DNA of 64,000 nucleotides, taken from the NCBI GenBank assembly GCA_963798465.1, contig CAWCTC010000001.1, positions 592,465 through 656,464 of the forward strand. Direction: 5' to 3'. Shown here one piece after another: positions 1,542 through 46,833 of the stretch; position 1 is the stretch's first letter, and every line of letters starts with the position of its first letter. The translations under genes and the position numbers were made by a program. A model generated the notes under the pieces. The model was given only the letters and a program-made list of their open reading frames with translations. It ran no database searches and was not told the DNA's origin. Source of the DNA: an uncultured bacterium (GTDB lineage: Bacteria > Patescibacteriota > Minisyncoccia > Phycocordibacterales > GWA1-40-21).

Positions 1542-2282
1542 TTAGTCCACAGGCAATTTCACCTCCACCATAGTTCCTTTATTCAATTCAGATTCTATTT
1601 TTATGCTTCCCTTGTGCATTTCAATGATTTTTCTTGTAGCAAATAAGCCAAGTCCGTTTTGTGTCTGGTCTAGCTCCTTTGCATTTTTGCCTCTATAAAA
1701 TTGCTCAAACATATGTTTCAAGTCGTCTCTTTCTATTCCGATACCATTGTCCTGCAAAACCAGCTTAGCCATATTTCCTTCTTCAGACAGAGTGACAGTC
1801 ACTGTGCCGTTTGGAGAATATCTGAAAGCATTATCAAAAATGTTTGTAAGCGCCAAATCTAAAAGTTTTTTATCTCCAAAAATAGTAACTGGGTCGCATT
1901 CTCTATCATATTGAAGATTTATATTTTTCTCTTTTATCAAATAGTCCAAATCTTTCAAGATTCCCTCTATAATGACGCAAACATTTATTTTTTCTTTTCT
2001 TAAATTAGCAAAACGCTCATTGGAATCCATTTCAGCGGCTTTCAATATTTCACCAATAGTATTTAGTGCTTCAATTATTTTATTATAGCTTTCATTCAAA
2101 ACATCTCTATCTTTGCATTCCTTATTTTTCAAAGCCATGTCCAAACCCCATCTTGCCCCGCTAAGCGGTGTGCGAAGTTTATGAACAAGAGCCAAAATAT
2201 AAGTCTCTTTAAATGGACTTGAGTCTGTTTTCCTTGCCCGGCTTGAATTTCCATTCTGTCCAAATATTGAAAAAAAGTTCAT
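1542..2282 (-). CDS. Cytoplasmic sensor histidine kinase (HisKA + HATPase_c, no TM segment)
   Basis: H-box LVHKLRTPLSG, N-box DNAFRYSP, G1 DNGIGI, G2 GLGLFATRKIIEMHKG. The N-terminus overlaps the H2 3' arm. Confidence 0.85.
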   Translation of the reverse strand: MNFFSIFGQNGNSSRARKTDSSPFKETYILALVHKLRTPLSGARWGLDMALKNKECKDRDVLNESYNKIIEALNTIGEILKAAEMDSNERFANLRKEKINVCVIIEGILKDLDYLIKEKNINLQYDRECDPVTIFGDKKLLDLALTNIFDNAFRYSPNGTVTVTLSEEGNMAKLVLQDNGIGIERDDLKHMFEQFYRGKNAKELDQTQNGLGLFATRKIIEMHKGSIKIESELNKGTMVEVKLPVD

Positions 2283-2535: not shown

Positions 2536-3780
2536 TTATGAAAATGGTATTTCCTTTTTATCCATTGTTATAAATGACTCTTTGAAGATTTTTTTATAAG
2601 TTTTCCTAAATAAAACTGTTTTTCTGAACTCTTTGAAAAGTGGCCAATCTTTTTTGTATGCATCTTTCATATCCTTTGTTGGACCAATTTTAAGCATCAT
2701 TTTAACTGCCTCTTTTAAATCATCTTTTATAATGGCTACTGCAAGTTTTAATTCATCATCCTCTGCTGACCAATCGCGACTATTTATAAGGTCAATAGCC
2801 ATTTTTTCGGATTTTCCAAATTTCATTGATAATGCCCTGTTAATAATAAACATGAGTTTAAATTTTTCTGAGGAAACTTTTTCAAGTTTATCTGAAAAAT
2901 CTAAAAGCCTTCCAGCAGATAAATTATTATCGTTGTTTAATAAATCTGCTGTCATATTTAATAAGTAAGTATCTGCATCCTCAATTTTATTTTCTTCCAG
3001 TTTTCTCCACAATGCTTGACTCAATTCAATTCCAATACAGAGACACAAATAACAAGAATCCAAAAAATAACCGGGTGTTAGTTCAAGTTTATAACCAACT
3101 TTGATTTTTTTACTCAGTGGAATATTATTCTTTCTACATATATTTATGTATTGTTTAGTCACAATACCATCGGAATGAACAAAAAGATTTCTTCTTTCAG
3201 TTAGCTCTGTAAACTTTTTAATACCGATTTCATTAAAGTTACATTTAATTTTCAATTTTTCTTCTAACCAATCAAAACATTTTTTTCTTCCATCATACAA
3301 TAACTGTTCAATTTCTTTATTTACTAGATATTGTCTGACCTCGGTTATACTTGTAAGCTCTAAGACCTCTGAGGTGCTTATTTTTTTCTCTGTATTATTT
3401 AATAAAAAATTATTTTTTTCAAAAACAATATTTAGTAATCCTCTTAGATGATTATCAAAATAACTGACCAAAGAAATGAAAAGACCTCTTGGTACTGCGC
3501 GTATTGCTAATGAACTATTTCTGACTTTCTTTTCTAAATTCTCCAGAGTTTCCCAATCTTTAATTTTGACTAAATATTCATTCGCAAATTTCTTTTTGGT
3601 CTTTGCAGACAAAAAATTGTCCAAATTATTTTTACCATGTTTAAATTCTTTAATAAGAGGCGCCATTATTAAAGGCAATGAAAATATTAAACAATCTATA
3701 TTATATTTGAAATTCTCAGTAGCCAACTCAAAAGTTGATATCTTTATTTCTTTTTTTTTATTTTTCTTATTATCAGTCAT
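2536..3780 (-). CDS. Hypothetical protein with HEPN-like Rx4H motif (possible RNase / abortive-infection type)
   Basis: TELTERRNLFVHSDGIV fits the HEPN R-x4-6-H signature (RiboL-PSP/Abi-like context). The C-terminal half is helical and repeat-like. No TM segment or signal peptide. Confidence 0.4.
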   Translation of the reverse strand: MTDNKKNKKKEIKISTFELATENFKYNIDCLIFSLPLIMAPLIKEFKHGKNNLDNFLSAKTKKKFANEYLVKIKDWETLENLEKKVRNSSLAIRAVPRGLFISLVSYFDNHLRGLLNIVFEKNNFLLNNTEKKISTSEVLELTSITEVRQYLVNKEIEQLLYDGRKKCFDWLEEKLKIKCNFNEIGIKKFTELTERRNLFVHSDGIVTKQYINICRKNNIPLSKKIKVGYKLELTPGYFLDSCYLCLCIGIELSQALWRKLEENKIEDADTYLLNMTADLLNNDNNLSAGRLLDFSDKLEKVSSEKFKLMFIINRALSMKFGKSEKMAIDLINSRDWSAEDDELKLAVAIIKDDLKEAVKMMLKIGPTKDMKDAYKKDWPLFKEFRKTVLFRKTYKKIFKESFITMDKKEIPFS

Positions 3781-25152: not shown

Positions 25153-25314
25153 TCAATCTTTTTTCTTCATTTCTCTTACTTTAAGATTTTCCTCATATAT
25201 CTTTCTTTTTTCTTCGTCCAAGAAATGCGATATGATCGCGTATTTTCTTCTCGGACGAAAAAACCTTTCCATTGCGTGACAAAACCATTTCCAAAAAATC
25301 TTCAAAGTAGTCAT
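25153..25314 (-). CDS. Small protein, 53 aa
   Basis: AGGAGGAGG lies 5 nt upstream of ATG 25314. Sequence is MTTLKIFWKWFCHAMERFFRPRRKYAIISHFLDEEKRKIYEENLKVREMKKKD. The track start at 25350 is upstream of the SD. Confidence 0.55.
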   Translation of the reverse strand: MTTLKIFWKWFCHAMERFFRPRRKYAIISHFLDEEKRKIYEENLKVREMKKKD

Positions 25315-35668: not shown

Positions 35669-35836
35669 ATGGTCATTTCAAAGGAAGATTTAGAAACAAA
35701 AGCAAGGAAAGATAAGAAAAGTTTCATCGGTAAAATCACCGACCTTCAGAAAAAAATCAAAGAAGAAACGGTAAAAGAAAACTTCCCGACAAAATTCCAC
35801 GGGAGCACGGTTGGCGACGCTATGCCGGCTGACTAA
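35669..35836 (+). CDS. Small protein, 55 aa
   Basis: GGGAGG lies 5 nt upstream of ATG 35669. Sequence is MVISKEDLETKARKDKKSFIGKITDLQKKIKEETVKENFPTKFHGSTVGDAMPAD. Confidence 0.55.
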   Translation: MVISKEDLETKARKDKKSFIGKITDLQKKIKEETVKENFPTKFHGSTVGDAMPAD

Positions 35837-35888: not shown

Positions 35889-35933
35889 GACTTAGCGAAG
35901 TCACATCGCACAACCGACATTATAGTGCGATGC
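35889..35933. repeat. Solo copy of the GACTTAGCGAAGTCAC...GTGCGAT repeat module
   Basis: Same unit as the interior of the composite MITEs at 24930..25043 and 61427..61523. Confidence 0.55.
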
Positions 35934-36016
35934 TATAAATTCGACAAAATAACCTTATTTATAGCCAATTTTAGTGTTTAATAAGACATATTTGTTGGTA
36001 AAGGTCAATATAATGC

Positions 36017-36044
36017 TTGACAAGATTTATTAATATGTTATCAT
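36017..36044 (+). promoter_or_regulatory. Sigma70-type promoter TTGACA-N16-TATCAT
   Basis: Read directly; upstream of the 45-aa ORF. Confidence 0.55.
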
Positions 36045-36089
36045 GTTGGCAGGAAATAAGAACAAATAAAATAAAAACGGGAGGCTATC

Positions 36090-36227
36090 ATGGCAAAGTT
36101 ATTAAAGTTTTTTTTCGGAAAGAAAAAAGTAATAGACACGGGAGCATTCATGGTGATTGAGGACTACTCACCCGAGGCCGTGACAAATAGGCTGGTAGAA
36201 ACATGGAGAAAGGAGAAAGCTGCCTAG
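36090..36227 (+). CDS. Small protein, 45 aa
   Basis: GGGAGG lies 5 nt upstream of ATG 36090. Sequence is MAKLLKFFFGKKKVIDTGAFMVIEDYSPEAVTNRLVETWRKEKAA. Confidence 0.5.
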   Translation: MAKLLKFFFGKKKVIDTGAFMVIEDYSPEAVTNRLVETWRKEKAA

Positions 36228-36236
36228 CCGACGGCC

Positions 36237-36285
36237 AAAACCGGTGAGCGAAAATTTCTTTAAGAAATTTTCGCTCACCGGTTTT
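36237..36285 (+). terminator. Very strong intrinsic terminator
   Basis: AAAACCGGTGAGCGAAAATTTCTT / AAGAAATTTTCGCTCACCGGTTTT, a stem of more than 20 bp. Confidence 0.85.
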
Positions 36286-36290
36286 AATTT

Positions 36291-36317
36291 TGTAAGAATT
36301 CCCCGCTTCATACGTCT
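36291..36317 (+). promoter_or_regulatory. ECF-type promoter TGTAAG-N16-CGTCT (copy 1, before the 18-aa micro-ORF)
   Basis: TGTAAGAATT + N12 + CGTCT, identical in both boxes and spacing to 37439..37465. It resembles Bacillus SigX/SigM-type consensus (TGTAAC/TGCAAC-N16-17-CGTC). Confidence 0.6.
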
Positions 36318-36359
36318 TCATGAGTGAAAGAACAAATTTTTTTCAAAGGAGGAAAAATC

Positions 36360-36416
36360 ATGCCAAATGATGAAGATTTTTTTAAGAGGTGGCTCAAATT
36401 ACTTTTCAGAAGGTAA
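36360..36416 (+). CDS. Micro-ORF, 18 aa, amphipathic
   Basis: AAGGAGG lies 7 nt upstream of ATG 36360. Sequence is MPNDEDFFKRWLKLLFRR. Flanked by the ECF-type promoter and its own terminator. Confidence 0.45.
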   Translation: MPNDEDFFKRWLKLLFRR

Positions 36417-36433
36417 ATGAGCTTCGTCTTAAA

Positions 36434-36466
36434 AGCCCGCACGAAACAAAACGTGCGGGCTTTTTC
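36434..36466 (+). terminator. Intrinsic terminator
   Basis: AGCCCGCACG-AAACAAAA-CGTGCGGGCT + T5. Confidence 0.8.
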
Positions 36467-36517
36467 TTTGTTTCACTTCCCTATCAAAAAAAATACATCG
36501 GCGATTTTTTTTGCAAA

Positions 36518-36544
36518 CAAAAAACACCCGCTCAATAGGTGTTT
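36518..36544 (-). terminator. Intrinsic terminator of the 36577..37311 gene
   Basis: AAACACC-TATTGAGC-GGGTGTTT + T-run on the minus strand. Confidence 0.6.
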
Positions 36545-36576
36545 CCTGTTTCTAATAAATCTTGCTGAGTATTCTA

Positions 36577-37311
36577 CTACTTATTAAATTTTTTTACAAA
36601 CCATCCGAACAGGCTAAACTTGCTGTTGTTGTTTTTCACATATTGATTCAGACTGGACATCTGATCTTTCAAGTTTTGTATATCGGTCAATGCCGTCGTC
36701 TTATCGGTTGAAGAGGCAACTCCAGAAATCTGACCGGTCAATTGTGTTATCTCCGCTTGCAACATATTTATCTGATTCATTATTGAATTAAGATTGCTGT
36801 AGTCCGGACCAATCAAAAAATTTTCGAAAGGATTTCTGCTGTCCACTTTGGTTACAGCTGCTGCAATCGTATTGGTCGAACTTGCCTCATCTGCGACAAG
36901 CGTTTTTATCTGATCGGATAAAGTTCCGAGTTTGTCTGCAACATCAAGCAAATTTTGCGTGCTTGAAGCGATATTCATTTTAAAATTTATTCCAAACTGA
37001 TCAAAAATCGGATGCCTCATCATCGTTGAAGAAGCGGTTGAAGAACCATATCTAAAACCCGGTCTTGTCGTTGAAGCATTTTTCCAATTTGCCGGTCTGT
37101 TCAAAGATGACGAAGAAAATGCTGGGGGCATTCCTCTGAAATTTCTCTCCCCTGCTCTTATCATTCTTGTAGAACTTGCGGTTGTGGAAGTTGCGACCGA
37201 AGTCGAATCCGTTGATGTCGAATCATCGGCAAAAACCAAAGACACTGGAATCAATGCAAAGGACAACGCGAGCAAAGAGCACAATATCGAACTTATTTTT
37301 TTATTTTTCAT
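36577..37311 (-). CDS. Secreted Ser/Thr-rich hypothetical protein
   Basis: Signal-like N-terminus (SSILCSLLALSFALIPVSLVFA), low-complexity ST tracts, helical C-terminal half. Confidence 0.55.
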   Translation of the reverse strand: MKNKKISSILCSLLALSFALIPVSLVFADDSTSTDSTSVATSTTASSTRMIRAGERNFRGMPPAFSSSSLNRPANWKNASTTRPGFRYGSSTASSTMMRHPIFDQFGINFKMNIASSTQNLLDVADKLGTLSDQIKTLVADEASSTNTIAAAVTKVDSRNPFENFLIGPDYSNLNSIMNQINMLQAEITQLTGQISGVASSTDKTTALTDIQNLKDQMSSLNQYVKNNNSKFSLFGWFVKKFNK

Positions 37312-37438
37312 AATTTTATTTTATTAAATTGATAATTTATTTAACGCGACCTTATAGCTGTTAAGACGCCAATAAACATTAAAGCTTACGTAGACAAAAT
37401 CATGTTTGCATTGTATCATAAAATCAAGAGATAATATA

Positions 37439-37465
37439 TGTAAGAATTAGCCTTTTTACACGTCT
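37439..37465 (+). promoter_or_regulatory. ECF-type promoter TGTAAG-N16-CGTCT (copy 2, autoregulatory position before the sigma gene)
   Basis: Ends 17 nt upstream of the GTG start at 37483. Confidence 0.6.
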
Positions 37466-37482
37466 CCATAAATAGAACAGCT

Positions 37483-37992
37483 GTGAAAGAAAAATTTATA
37501 TCACTTTACAACAAGCTTTCGGATTCCGTATTCAGATACTGCCTTTTCAGAGTATCCGACAGAGATTCTGCACTTGATATCACCCAAGAAACTTTTACAA
37601 AATATTGGGATGCGCTTGCCGGAGGCCAGAAAATAAATAATGACAGAGCGCTCATATTCACCATCGCGAGAAATTTGATAATTGACCATTACAGAAAAAA
37701 GAAATCAGTTTCGCTTGAAGCGATGACGGAAACGGAGGATGGAGAAAATTTCGAGGATTTTATCCTGGTGGAAGACAACAAAAAATACGAAATCGAATTG
37801 GAAACGGAAGCAAGATTTTTGATCAACAAGATAATTGAATTGCCAAAATCATACCAGCAAGTCGTCTATCTCAGATTCGTCGAAGATTTGAAACCGGATG
37901 AAATAGCAAAAATTCTCGGAATATCAGTGAGCGCAGCTTCGGTAAGAATCCACAGAGGAATTGAAGAATTGAAAAAATTGACGGGATACTAA
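37483..37992 (+). CDS. ECF (group 4) sigma-70 family RNA polymerase sigma factor
   Basis: Region 2 (SALDITQETFTKYW, IFTIARNLIIDHYRKK) and region 4 (YQQVVYLRFVEDLKPDEIAKILGISVSAASVRIHRG). Confidence 0.8.
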   Translation: MKEKFISLYNKLSDSVFRYCLFRVSDRDSALDITQETFTKYWDALAGGQKINNDRALIFTIARNLIIDHYRKKKSVSLEAMTETEDGENFEDFILVEDNKKYEIELETEARFLINKIIELPKSYQQVVYLRFVEDLKPDEIAKILGISVSAASVRIHRGIEELKKLTGY

Positions 37993-38112: not shown

Positions 38113-38862
38113 ATGGAAGATAAAAAATTAAAAAATGTAATAGGCCAGATAAAAAAAGTTTCTCTTTCGCAAGATGAGAAAAGCAAGATTTTGCATAATC
38201 TTTCTGTCTACGCCGATTTTCACAGAGCGATATTGAGCCCGTCTTCGCTGTTTTCATATTTTAAAAATTCAAATAAAAAATTCGCATATGTTTTGGCTTC
38301 CGTAATCATACTCATACTCGCCGGAGGAACAGCAGTTTACGCATCGGAAGATTCCCTTCCCGGAGATTTGCTCTACCCTATCAAAACAAAAGTTGTCGAA
38401 CCGATTAAAGTCGCTTTGGCAACAACTCCGGCAGCAAAAGCTGATGTCGAAGCAAGTTTGGCTGTCGAAAGATTGAAAGAAGCAGAAACTTTAGATCAAA
38501 AAGGCAAATTAACTCCCAATATTAAAAAAGAAATAGATGGAAACCTATCAAATGACATGTCTAATTTTTTCAAAATAAAAAATCAGATGGAAGGAACAAC
38601 GACTGACAGCACAAGTTCTGAAATTGAAAATACAAAAATAAAAGCTGAATTTGAAAATAGGCTAGGATCTCATAAAGAGATGTTCAATAAATTGAATCAT
38701 GAAAATTCATATAATCCAGCACAAAAAATGTTCCAAGCGACATCAACCGGAACTTCGACAAATTCATATATCAGAGGAAACGCAAAAAATATGAAAATGC
38801 CTGATAGCAGAAGCACGAGCTCAGGATATACGAAAGAAAATCCATTTCAAAACAATTATTAA
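38113..38862 (+). CDS. Putative anti-sigma factor (single TM helix, DUF5667-like extracytoplasmic domain)
   Basis: Position immediately after the ECF sigma gene. TM helix FAYVLASVIILILAGGTAVYA, then LPGDLLYPIKTKVVEPIKV. Confidence 0.45.
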   Translation: MEDKKLKNVIGQIKKVSLSQDEKSKILHNLSVYADFHRAILSPSSLFSYFKNSNKKFAYVLASVIILILAGGTAVYASEDSLPGDLLYPIKTKVVEPIKVALATTPAAKADVEASLAVERLKEAETLDQKGKLTPNIKKEIDGNLSNDMSNFFKIKNQMEGTTTDSTSSEIENTKIKAEFENRLGSHKEMFNKLNHENSYNPAQKMFQATSTGTSTNSYIRGNAKNMKMPDSRSTSSGYTKENPFQNNY

Positions 38863-38908
38863 TAATGTTATAATTGGCGTGTTATATTATTCATAATAAA
38901 AAATACTC

Positions 38909-39325
38909 ATGATTTATCTTTTTGAATGGACGCCGGCCATTTCTGTCGGTGATGCGATAATCGACGCTCAGCATCAAAGACTGCTCGGCGAAGTCAATAC
39001 CCTCCTTTCATATATTGTCTCAGAAAAAAATGATGAATTGGTTATGGAAGCGGTTTCTTTTCTTGATAAATATATCAGCGAACATTTATATTATGAGGAG
39101 CAATACATGGCGGAGCATAAATTTCCAGAAATCGAGGAACATAAAAAACTGCACAAAGATTTCATCGACCATTACAAAATTTTTCATGAGCAGCTCAAAG
39201 CCGGAGTGTCGAGAGAAACCTTGGCTTTGGACATTGAACAATATATAGGAAACTGGTGGCTCAATCATATCGGCAAAGAAGATCACAAATATGCCATGTA
39301 TATCGCAAACCACGAAATAAAATAA
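38909..39325 (+). CDS. Hemerythrin-like (bacteriohemerythrin) protein
   Basis: WTPAISVGDAIIDAQHQRL, EHLYYEEQYM, HKKLHKDFI, WWLNHIGKEDHKY (His/Glu iron ligand pattern). Confidence 0.8.
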   Translation: MIYLFEWTPAISVGDAIIDAQHQRLLGEVNTLLSYIVSEKNDELVMEAVSFLDKYISEHLYYEEQYMAEHKFPEIEEHKKLHKDFIDHYKIFHEQLKAGVSRETLALDIEQYIGNWWLNHIGKEDHKYAMYIANHEIK

Positions 39326-46584: not shown

Positions 46585-46833
46585 ATGGCAACAAGACTTG
46601 ATGAATTAGAAGAAGTTATTAAAAAACACAAGGAAGAGGAGGCGAAGAAAATAGTGAGAGATGACGCTGCATATATTAAAAGGATGTGCAGAGGAAAAAG
46701 AAATTATTATTTACTGGCTGACCCTGGCTATCCTTATGAAAAAATTCGGGTAACAAAAAAAGTTTATATTGAAAATCTGTTGAGAGACAAGCAAGACAAA
46801 AGAGATGATTATTTCTTATTCCATGGATGCTAA
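46585..46833 (+). CDS. Small protein, 82 aa
   Basis: AAGGAGG lies 8 nt upstream of ATG 46585. A 10-aa ORF with its own AGGAG follows at 46851..46883. Confidence 0.5.
   Translation: MATRLDELEEVIKKHKEEEAKKIVRDDAAYIKRMCRGKRNYYLLADPGYPYEKIRVTKKVYIENLLRDKQDKRDDYFLFHGC

Follow-up and report, generated by a model that had tools for sequence, protein, structure and literature searches.

A 64-kb stretch of AT-rich DNA (64,000 nt, GC about 36%; hereafter the window) from a bacterium of the CPR/Patescibacteria carries an ECF sigma gene and, upstream of it, an open reading frame of only 18 codons (the micro-ORF), each preceded by the same promoter-like sequence, and this raises the question of which transcripts the sigma factor might direct at the locus and what the shortest of them might encode. 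CPR/Patescibacteria are uncultivated, have genomes of about 1 Mb and possess few regulators. In the literature searched, there was no mention of DUF5667, the domain of the protein encoded next to the sigma gene, or of CPR ECF promoters; no paper linked ECF sigma factors with Parcubacteria, the co-mentions of 'ECF sigma' and 'Patescibacteria' were unrelated to this system, and the paper in which ECF sigma factors were reclassified does not mention CPR in its main text. The sequence comparisons presented below suggest that one ECF sigma factor acts at three sites within 1.2 kb, and that the third transcript is most likely, if far from certainly, an mRNA for an 18-aa peptide.

The sigma gene (37483..37992, plus strand) has a GTG start and encodes 169 aa, with Pfam matches to Sigma70_r2 (residues 8–74) and Sigma70_r4_2 (residues 117–163). 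The protein scores 81.8 bits against the NCBIfam model TIGR02937 (sigma70-ECF), the cutoff of which is 42.9, and its size and its possession of regions 2 and 4 only agree with the usual definition of ECF sigma factors, namely these two regions alone in about 170–200 aa. Among proteins of solved structure B. subtilis SigW comes nearest to it (E=1e-14); none of the NCBIfam equivalog cutoffs is reached, those of the SigX and SigM models lying far above its scores. An identical sigma factor is present in the Logan assembly L001 and a 95% relative in PLOL01000029.1 ('Patescibacteria group bacterium isolate bog_1341'), while remoter relatives carry the labels Candidatus Paceibacterota, Parcubacteria or Nomurabacteria. 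The organism occurs in peat and bog samples, among them those behind ERR11594402, PLOL01000029.1 and SRR35912369. Adjoining the sigma gene on its 3′ side is a gene for a single-pass membrane protein with a Pfam DUF5667 domain (38113..38862, plus strand), an arrangement found in 139 of 173 loci. About 55 residues at the N-terminus of the protein are cytoplasmic, and a single transmembrane segment and an external domain follow. Pfam and PDB sequence searches found no anti-sigma domain in it, and the N-terminus has no Pfam match. The role of anti-sigma factor or sensor partner is therefore presumed from position and topology only.

The preliminary description of the locus had pointed to two promoter copies with identical boxes and spacing, and this observation holds: the window contains only two exact matches to TGTAAG-N16-CGTCT, both on the plus strand (36291..36317 and 37439..37465), against a mean of 0.01 matches in dinucleotide-preserving shuffles, none of which (0/100) contained two or more. 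The likeness extends over the first ten bases, TGTAAGAATT in both copies, so that the full form reads TGTAAGAATT-N12-CGTCT. The copy at 37439..37465 ends 17 nt upstream of the GTG (37483) of the 169-aa sigma ORF, as had been noted, and the autoregulatory position assigned to it is borne out by the same motif at the same position in 111 of 161 related loci. The other copy, with a −35 element TGTAAGAA, a gap of 16 nt after GTAAG and a −10 element CGTCT, precedes the micro-ORF. When the motif is relaxed to GTAA-N16-19-CGTC it is enriched in the window (12 matches, 2.6 expected), but the nine matches outside the locus were not counted as promoters because they lie inside or antisense to genes or face an oppositely oriented gene. 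Upstream of the autoregulatory promoter, between it and a further ECF site considered below, lies a sigma-70-like promoter, TAGACA-N17-TATCAT (37391..37419, plus strand), which agrees with the consensus at 10 of 12 positions and of which ATAGACA...TTGTAT is kept across relatives. Basal expression of the sigma factor probably starts there.

Whether the two copies are promoters of the adjacent sigma factor can be judged from its relatives, for which 160 loci were taken from genome and metagenome contigs and 14 from exact-protein look-ups. Of 161 Paceibacterota loci, 111 (about 70%) have GTAAG-N16/17-CGT[CT] just ahead of the sigma orthologue, and in 106 of these 111 the spacing is 16 nt. A PWM built from 94 distinct autoregulatory sites of relatives, window-like loci being left out, has the consensus taATGTAAGAAAT...ATACGTCTTA. 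With this matrix exactly two sites in the 64-kb window reach at least 12 bits: the one before the sigma gene scores 31.0 bits and the one before the micro-ORF 27.4 bits. For comparison, the median of true autoregulatory sites is 24.4 bits, and scores of 24 bits or more were not attained anywhere in 2.8 Mb of shuffled loci. Over 943 kb of loci the matrix gave 206 matches of at least 13 bits, comprising 128 autoregulatory sites, 50 divergent ones and others. The additional strong sites in other lineages mostly precede genes for signal-peptide proteins or the DUF5667 gene, and a few stand before unrelated short ORFs that end in a terminator (14 aa in L108, 37 aa in L132 and 34 aa in L031). The ECF-type reading proposed for both copies is thus shared by a whole family of sites and recovered from relatives alone; a promoter of the form tGTAAGAAa-N13-CGTCt is strongly supported by these comparisons as the one recognised by this sigma factor, and both exact copies are very probably its promoters.

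The likeness to SigX/SigM-type promoters that had been suggested applies to the CGTC of the −10 element and to the spacing, but not to the −35 element, whose last base is G in place of the C of TGTAAC or TGCAAC; it is a resemblance and does not make these sites members of that promoter type. When sites were anchored on CGTC and no −35 was forced (n=135), GTAAG was found 90 times, GAAAG 15 times and GTAAT nine times; G[T/A]AAG accounted for 106 of the 135 sites and AAC occurred in only one. Accordingly, AAG takes the place of the AAC typical of ECF promoters in this family.

A search by eye had revealed no third copy in the window. A degenerate one is present on the minus strand, at 37364..37390 (read 37390..37364), where CGTAAGCTTT-N12-CGTCT is found if three mismatches are allowed. 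From its end to the start codon (ATG) of a divergent gene for 244 aa (36577..37311, minus strand) downstream there are 52 nt, and its 10.7 bits are at chance level by score alone, about one such site being expected per 64 kb, so that the support for it comes from its position. Minus-strand sites of at least 13 bits lie 30–230 nt upstream of the sigma gene in 50 relatives, with a conserved TTCTTACATAGACA, and in the close relatives L162, L163, L082 and L083 the divergent site reaches 17–20 bits. The 244-aa protein has a signal peptide, a region rich in serine and threonine and a C-terminal region, and it evolves fast: its orthologues are 89% identical in L002, 44% in L162 and 36% in L163. Among the relatives, 40 of 44 distinct genes downstream of the divergent promoter begin with a signal-peptide-like sequence. 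The conserved core of the regulon would therefore appear to consist of the sigma–DUF5667 operon and a divergently transcribed secreted protein. Since the divergent site is conserved across the family, the peptide cannot be regarded as the only visible target other than the sigma factor itself, as the preliminary description had proposed.

The micro-ORF has the parts of a complete, if very small, transcription unit, much as first described. Its promoter at 36291..36317 is followed by an SD sequence, AAGGAGG (36346..36352), 7 nt before the ATG at 36360, by 18 codons and a stop (36360..36416, stop codon at 36414..36416; MPNDEDFFKRWLKLLFRR) and by an intrinsic terminator of its own (36431..36472) with a 13-bp stem (36431..36464) that includes eight GC pairs and is followed by a T-run, all on the plus strand. 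Because the terminator of the upstream 45-aa gene (36239..36283) precedes the promoter, the unit has a terminator on either side; between its own terminator and the 244-aa gene there is a second terminator-like hairpin (36510..36560), which is conserved and bidirectional. MFE folds also contain an imperfect hairpin (36383..36431, plus strand) formed by codons 9–18, the stop codon and 15 nt beyond. The predicted transcript of about 150 nt folds at −53.4 kcal/mol, with z=−6.6 relative to shuffled sequences, or −2.9 when the terminator is left out. The micro-ORF was not called by any gene caller in the collections searched, and the micro-ORF peptides have no Pfam match. A frame of 30 aa that starts further upstream at a GTG (36324..36416) was rejected as the gene: in L002 a TAA before the ATG closes it, and the ATG is therefore taken as the start.

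Several roles that come to mind for so small a unit were discarded. That of a leader peptide or attenuator is contradicted by the next gene being convergent (36577..37311, minus strand); the His, Thr, Leu and Trp leader models gave weak, sub-threshold matches to the unit, and alternative pairing was limited to weak stretches of 5–6 bp. A type I toxin is not indicated either, the peptide being highly charged and no antisense promoter being predicted across the micro-ORF. With eight of 18 residues D, E, K or R, the peptide has a net charge of +2 and is without a hydrophobic segment. The amphipathic C-terminal half attributed to it reaches significance in the window peptide (µH 0.88, p≈0.02), whereas its orthologue in L162 does not show it (µH 0.47, p≈0.56), and the membrane-active role that had been considered is for this reason not endorsed. 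A likeness of the peptide to what the antisense strand of sigma region 2 would encode, seen at several loci, was set aside as being at chance level (tblastn E 1.6–15), the more so since the loci are homologous and the matches therefore not independent. An SD-led ORF at 46585 (MATR...), considered as a possible paralogue of the L162 peptide (MATT...), encodes an unrelated 82-aa protein.

The preliminary description had named conservation of the micro-ORF in related genomes as a check, and the outcome is divided. The whole unit is found in the L002 group (L002, L101 and L164–L170), in which the sigma factor is 95% identical, the promoter scores 24.0 bits and the peptide of L002 and L101 is MQNDEDYFKRWLKLLFRR. 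L162, a relative at 86%, carries the unit at the same place and likewise convergent with the homologue of the 244-aa gene; there the promoter reads TTTTGTAAGAATTCCC...ACGTCT (28.9 bits) and is followed by AAGGAGG, ATCATG, an ORF of 24 codons (MATTDKDQRDAEFKKKLIKLYLSL), the stop codon of which lies within a 13-bp hairpin, and a terminator. Compared with the window, both promoter boxes are kept in L162 while spacer and leader have diverged. In L163, also at 86%, the terminator and flanking TTCCCTAT are kept and the promoter and ORF are absent. Neither the promoter nor the remainder of the unit is present in L082, L003, L171 or L172, and in L174 and L175, judged from gene layout only, there is no room for it. 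The last four loci belong to the relatives at 70–84% among which further carriers were sought; another of these, L173, is uninformative as its contig ends too close upstream of the sigma gene. The carriers amount to three lineages and effectively to two independent comparisons. The DUF5667 proteins of the window and L162 are 59% identical and either is 49–56% identical to that of L163, and the pattern across these three may reflect a gain in the common ancestor of the window lineage and L162 or a loss in L163. Missing as it is from close relatives, the unit must be dispensable, and as far as the compared loci indicate it is a narrow, lineage-specific addition to the regulon.

Is the micro-ORF translated? 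An SD precedes only one of the 52 long ORFs of the window, and coding is favoured for this reason. Leaderless mRNAs are suggested by a TATAAT box that many of the long ORFs have 6–10 nt before the ATG. Of the seven occurrences of AAGGAGG in the 64 kb, five have an ATG 4–8 nt further on, and the strong SDs of the window belong almost exclusively to short stand-alone genes of 18–82 aa, a class into which the micro-ORF fits. SD and ATCATG are kept in all three carrier lineages despite diverged flanks. An indel of 18 nt between the window and L162 preserves the frame, the two stop codons fall at the same alignment position, and the replacements are mostly conservative (D/E, R/K, L/I, and TTA/CTT for Leu). 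The substitution pattern itself is less telling: the two differences between the window and L002 are both non-synonymous, with none synonymous, and those between the window and L162 are distributed 6:8:10 over codon positions 1, 2 and 3, with no clear signature of purifying selection at the protein level. An open frame of 18–24 codons would moreover arise by chance at the GC content of the window with a probability of about 0.2–0.3. With its SD, ATG and terminator kept in both L002 and L162, the micro-ORF is nevertheless a plausible real gene and one that is probably translated.

Alternatively, the unit could give rise to a regulatory RNA that depends on the ECF sigma factor and is not translated, the ORF being incidental; it would repress on behalf of the regulon, as MicA, RybB and MicL do for sigma-E of E. 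coli. RNAs dependent on sigma-E are well established (PMC4102768). The transcript would be in keeping with this, being compact (about 150 nt), ending in two hairpins and a U-tail and far exceeding shuffles in stability (z=−6.6), and so would the hairpin over the stop codon, which in L162 occupies the same relative position with a different sequence, and the substitutions between the window and L162, which have no third-position bias. It would leave unexplained, however, why a consensus SD should stand at the optimal distance from an ATG in all three lineages, and in a genome otherwise poor in SDs, why the indel between lineages keeps the frame and why the stops coincide. Nor does pairing with the start regions of mRNAs exceed background, be it those for the sigma factor, the DUF5667 protein and the 244-aa protein or those of the other genes in the window: RNAduplex gave −24.6, −17.8 and −15.1 kcal/mol for the three, against a mean of −21.5 ± 6 over 52 gene starts, and 18 complementary stretches of at least 11 nt were found where shuffled sequences had a mean of 8.7 and a maximum of 20. 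Searches of the 64 kb with Rfam returned no match at gathering thresholds and, at E≤10, only generic hairpin or terminator families far below threshold. A purely non-coding function is thus considered unlikely. The coexistence of coding signals (SD, ATG and frame) and conserved structure might also be accounted for by an RNA that both encodes a peptide and base-pairs, as do SgrS/SgrT, SR1/SR1P and Pos19, the last being an RpoE-dependent small coding RNA (PMC5036791); dual-function RNAs are reviewed in PMC12612679. But a candidate base-pairing target was not found in the 64 kb, the structure may be a mere stabiliser of the 3′ end, and to fit two functions into about 110 nt is less parsimonious, all of which makes this reading decidedly unlikely.

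Two further possibilities would deprive the peptide of any role. The unit lies directly 3′ of the 244-aa gene and convergent with it in all three lineages, and one sigma factor is predicted to act on both, so that transcription itself might temper the 244-aa gene, through antisense RNA from convergent read-through or through collision of RNA polymerases. The strong terminator (13 bp, eight GC pairs and a T-run) and the hairpin at 36510..36560 that stand between the two, as well as the conserved SD, ATG and open frame, for which such interference offers no reason, render this highly improbable. The promoter copy could finally be a neutral by-product without selected function, for instance of a partial duplication of the sigma promoter: both leaders have GTGAAAGAA(C)AAATTT after the −10 element, and the absence of the unit from close relatives agrees with its being dispensable. 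Yet a common 9-mer arises in 3.4% of shuffles and this one is not in the L162 leader, for which reasons no reliance is placed on an origin by duplication. In favour of selection, the promoter boxes, SD, ATG and terminator have been kept at a distance at which the identity of the neighbouring protein has fallen to 44%, and a neutral by-product is accordingly very unlikely. The reading to which we return is that of an mRNA for the 18-aa peptide.

If the transcript is indeed such an mRNA, the locus might operate in the following way. An envelope or extracytoplasmic signal would be sensed via the DUF5667 membrane protein, whereupon the sigma factor would be released. Sigma would then act on its own promoter, giving positive feedback on the sigma–DUF5667 operon, on the weaker divergent promoter, leading to the secreted 244-aa protein, and on the strong micro-ORF promoter, from which a monocistronic transcript of about 150 nt with its own terminator would be made. 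The consensus SD would draw ribosomes to this mRNA and the charged 18-aa peptide would be produced; as its transcript would be driven by sigma, we propose that the peptide is made only upon sigma release. The hairpin at the stop codon and the terminator probably serve to stabilise the 3′ end of the short mRNA. In this scheme we infer, from the sequences and the gene order, the sigma-dependence of transcription, the translation of the micro-ORF and the anti-sigma role of the DUF5667 protein. By analogy, and with low confidence, the peptide might be an accessory effector or a feedback modulator of the same stress response.

MgrB, a 47-aa membrane protein of the PhoQ/PhoP system, is comparable in concept as a very small protein induced by the system that it could modulate, but the peptide considered here has 18 aa and lacks a hydrophobic segment, and the comparison is one of analogy only. 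Pos19 of Rhodobacter sphaeroides, the ORF of which reportedly has about 50 codons, belongs to another phylum and has no sequence relationship to the present unit, the predicted transcript of which has about 150 nt and 18 codons. What the two have in common is a short stand-alone, ECF-driven transcript with a small ORF, the Pos19 RNA being 219 nt long (PMC5036791). MgrB and SafA are described in a bioRxiv preprint (10.64898/2026.05.06.723403). The enterobacterial RNAs MicA, RybB and MicL share with the unit an ECF promoter (there that of sigma-E), a short structured RNA, a terminator and membership of an envelope-stress regulon (PMC4102768); they differ in having no SD-led ORF and in pairing through Hfq-assisted seeds, whereas the present unit has kept its SD and ATG across lineages and shows no outstanding complementarity to a target within the 64 kb.

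ECF sigma factors usually autoregulate and are encoded together with their targets (PMC7826278), and the resemblance of the locus to the sigma-W, -X, -M and -V systems of B. subtilis is broad: a two-box promoter with a CGTC −10 element and a 16-nt gap, a copy of it upstream of the sigma gene, a membrane protein encoded downstream, envelope or secreted targets, and SigW as the closest solved homologue. The CGTC −10 element is common to sigma-M, -X and -V of B. subtilis, and AAC in the −35 element is typical of ECF promoters though not strictly defining (PMC5758882). Against the near-universal AAC of the B. subtilis promoters, the −35 element here is G[T/A]AAGAA, and it is followed by an A/T-rich AA[A/T] where those have a T-tract; the partner, too, sets the locus apart, as a DUF5667 protein in which an anti-sigma domain cannot be recognised. 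The AAG of the −35 element, the DUF5667 partner and the CPR host are what distinguishes the present regulon from known ones.

ECF autoregulation combined with a few local targets, a small coding RNA among them, has clear precedents, and the findings are in this sense useful rather than surprising. The motif tGTAAGAAa-N13-CGTCt of the widespread ECF–DUF5667 module lets CPR regulons be read straight from metagenome-assembled genomes, and the sigma factor and its three promoters constitute defined parts for tests in a surrogate host. The micro-ORF is probably a real gene missed by annotation pipelines, and an SD can be used in this genome as a specific flag for short stand-alone genes. A bolder reading, which we consider quite unlikely, would make the ~150-nt transcript a regulator under the control of the ECF sigma factor, of dual function or working by feedback, that acts as peptide and/or RNA on the sigma/DUF5667 module or on the co-regulated secreted protein. 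CPR organisms are thought to have very little regulation, and if this reading were true the unit would, to our knowledge, be the first regulatory small RNA/micropeptide circuit described in Patescibacteria/CPR. It would then also be one of a larger group of micro-genes, led by an SD and absent from annotations, in genomes whose mRNAs appear for the most part to be leaderless.

The gene for a secreted 244-aa protein, which diverges from the ECF sigma factor gene (36577..37311, minus strand), is 89% identical at the protein level to its counterpart in L002, 44% to that in L162 and 36% to that in L163, these being related loci that carry an orthologous sigma gene; the sigma factors themselves are 95, 86 and 86% identical, respectively. 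The secreted protein has thus evolved much faster than its regulator, in the window as among the orthologues, and no Pfam family was found for it. Directly past its stop codon, between this gene and the micro-ORF unit, lies a palindromic, A/T-flanked hairpin, AAACAAAAAACACCCGCTCAATAGGTGTTTCCTGTTTCTAATAAA (36510..36560), which looks like a bidirectional terminator. As judged by eye, the hairpin is conserved at roughly 85–90% in seven relatives (L002, L162, L163, L082, L003, L171 and L172), its loop GCTCAAT being among the conserved part. The adjoining protein is 89% identical in L002 and 33–47% identical in the other six, and the conservation of the hairpin is unusually strong for a terminator.

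In the bases just past the −10 element, the two promoters within one genome are more alike than orthologous promoters are between genomes. In the window, CGTCTTCATGA and CGTCTCCATAA follow the −10 (36313..36323 versus 37461..37471), while in L162 both promoters have CGTCTCAATA (2189..2198 versus 3476..3485). This likeness, anecdotal in that it concerns three genomes only, could stem from a start-site or discriminator preference particular to each genome, or else from gene conversion.

In most relatives the ATG of the sigma gene lies only about 9 nt past the CGTC −10 (for example, near 3480..3500 in L024, L044 and L051), which would leave the autoregulated sigma mRNA without a leader. The clade of the window has lost this ATG near the −10 and instead starts the gene at a GTG that lies 17 nt downstream and has no Shine–Dalgarno sequence. 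Across the whole window, just one of the 52 long ORFs has a Shine–Dalgarno sequence, and many have a TATAAT box 6–10 nt upstream of the ATG; the latter spacing suggests that leaderless mRNAs are widespread. Strong Shine–Dalgarno sequences occur almost solely at short stand-alone ORFs of 18–82 aa, such as those at 35669, 36090, 46585 and 60643 on the plus strand and at 25314, 993 and 722 on the minus strand.

A hemerythrin gene follows the sigma–DUF5667 pair in the clade of the window (38909..39325; L162, 4809..5225; L171, 4261..4674) and, in the window, has its own sigma-70-like promoter (38846..38874). Relatives carry cupredoxin and DAO-type oxidoreductase genes near the pair. These neighbours hint that the signal of the system is linked to oxygen, redox or metal.

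Upstream of the micro-ORF unit, 35900..36227 looks like a variable small-gene position under conserved expression signals: the sigma-70-type promoter (36017..36044), leader and strong Shine–Dalgarno sequence are conserved and the small ORF differs in each relative, being of 45 aa in the window (36090..36227), unrelated in L002, and of 29 and 64 aa in L162 and L163. Very short, unrelated ORFs are also driven by ECF-type sites in distant relatives (L108, 3241..3400, 14 aa; L132, 3164..3400, 37 aa; L031, 2496..2300, minus strand, 34 aa). Those of L108 and L132 are followed by a terminator. These ECF regulons may have acquired tiny genes repeatedly and independently.
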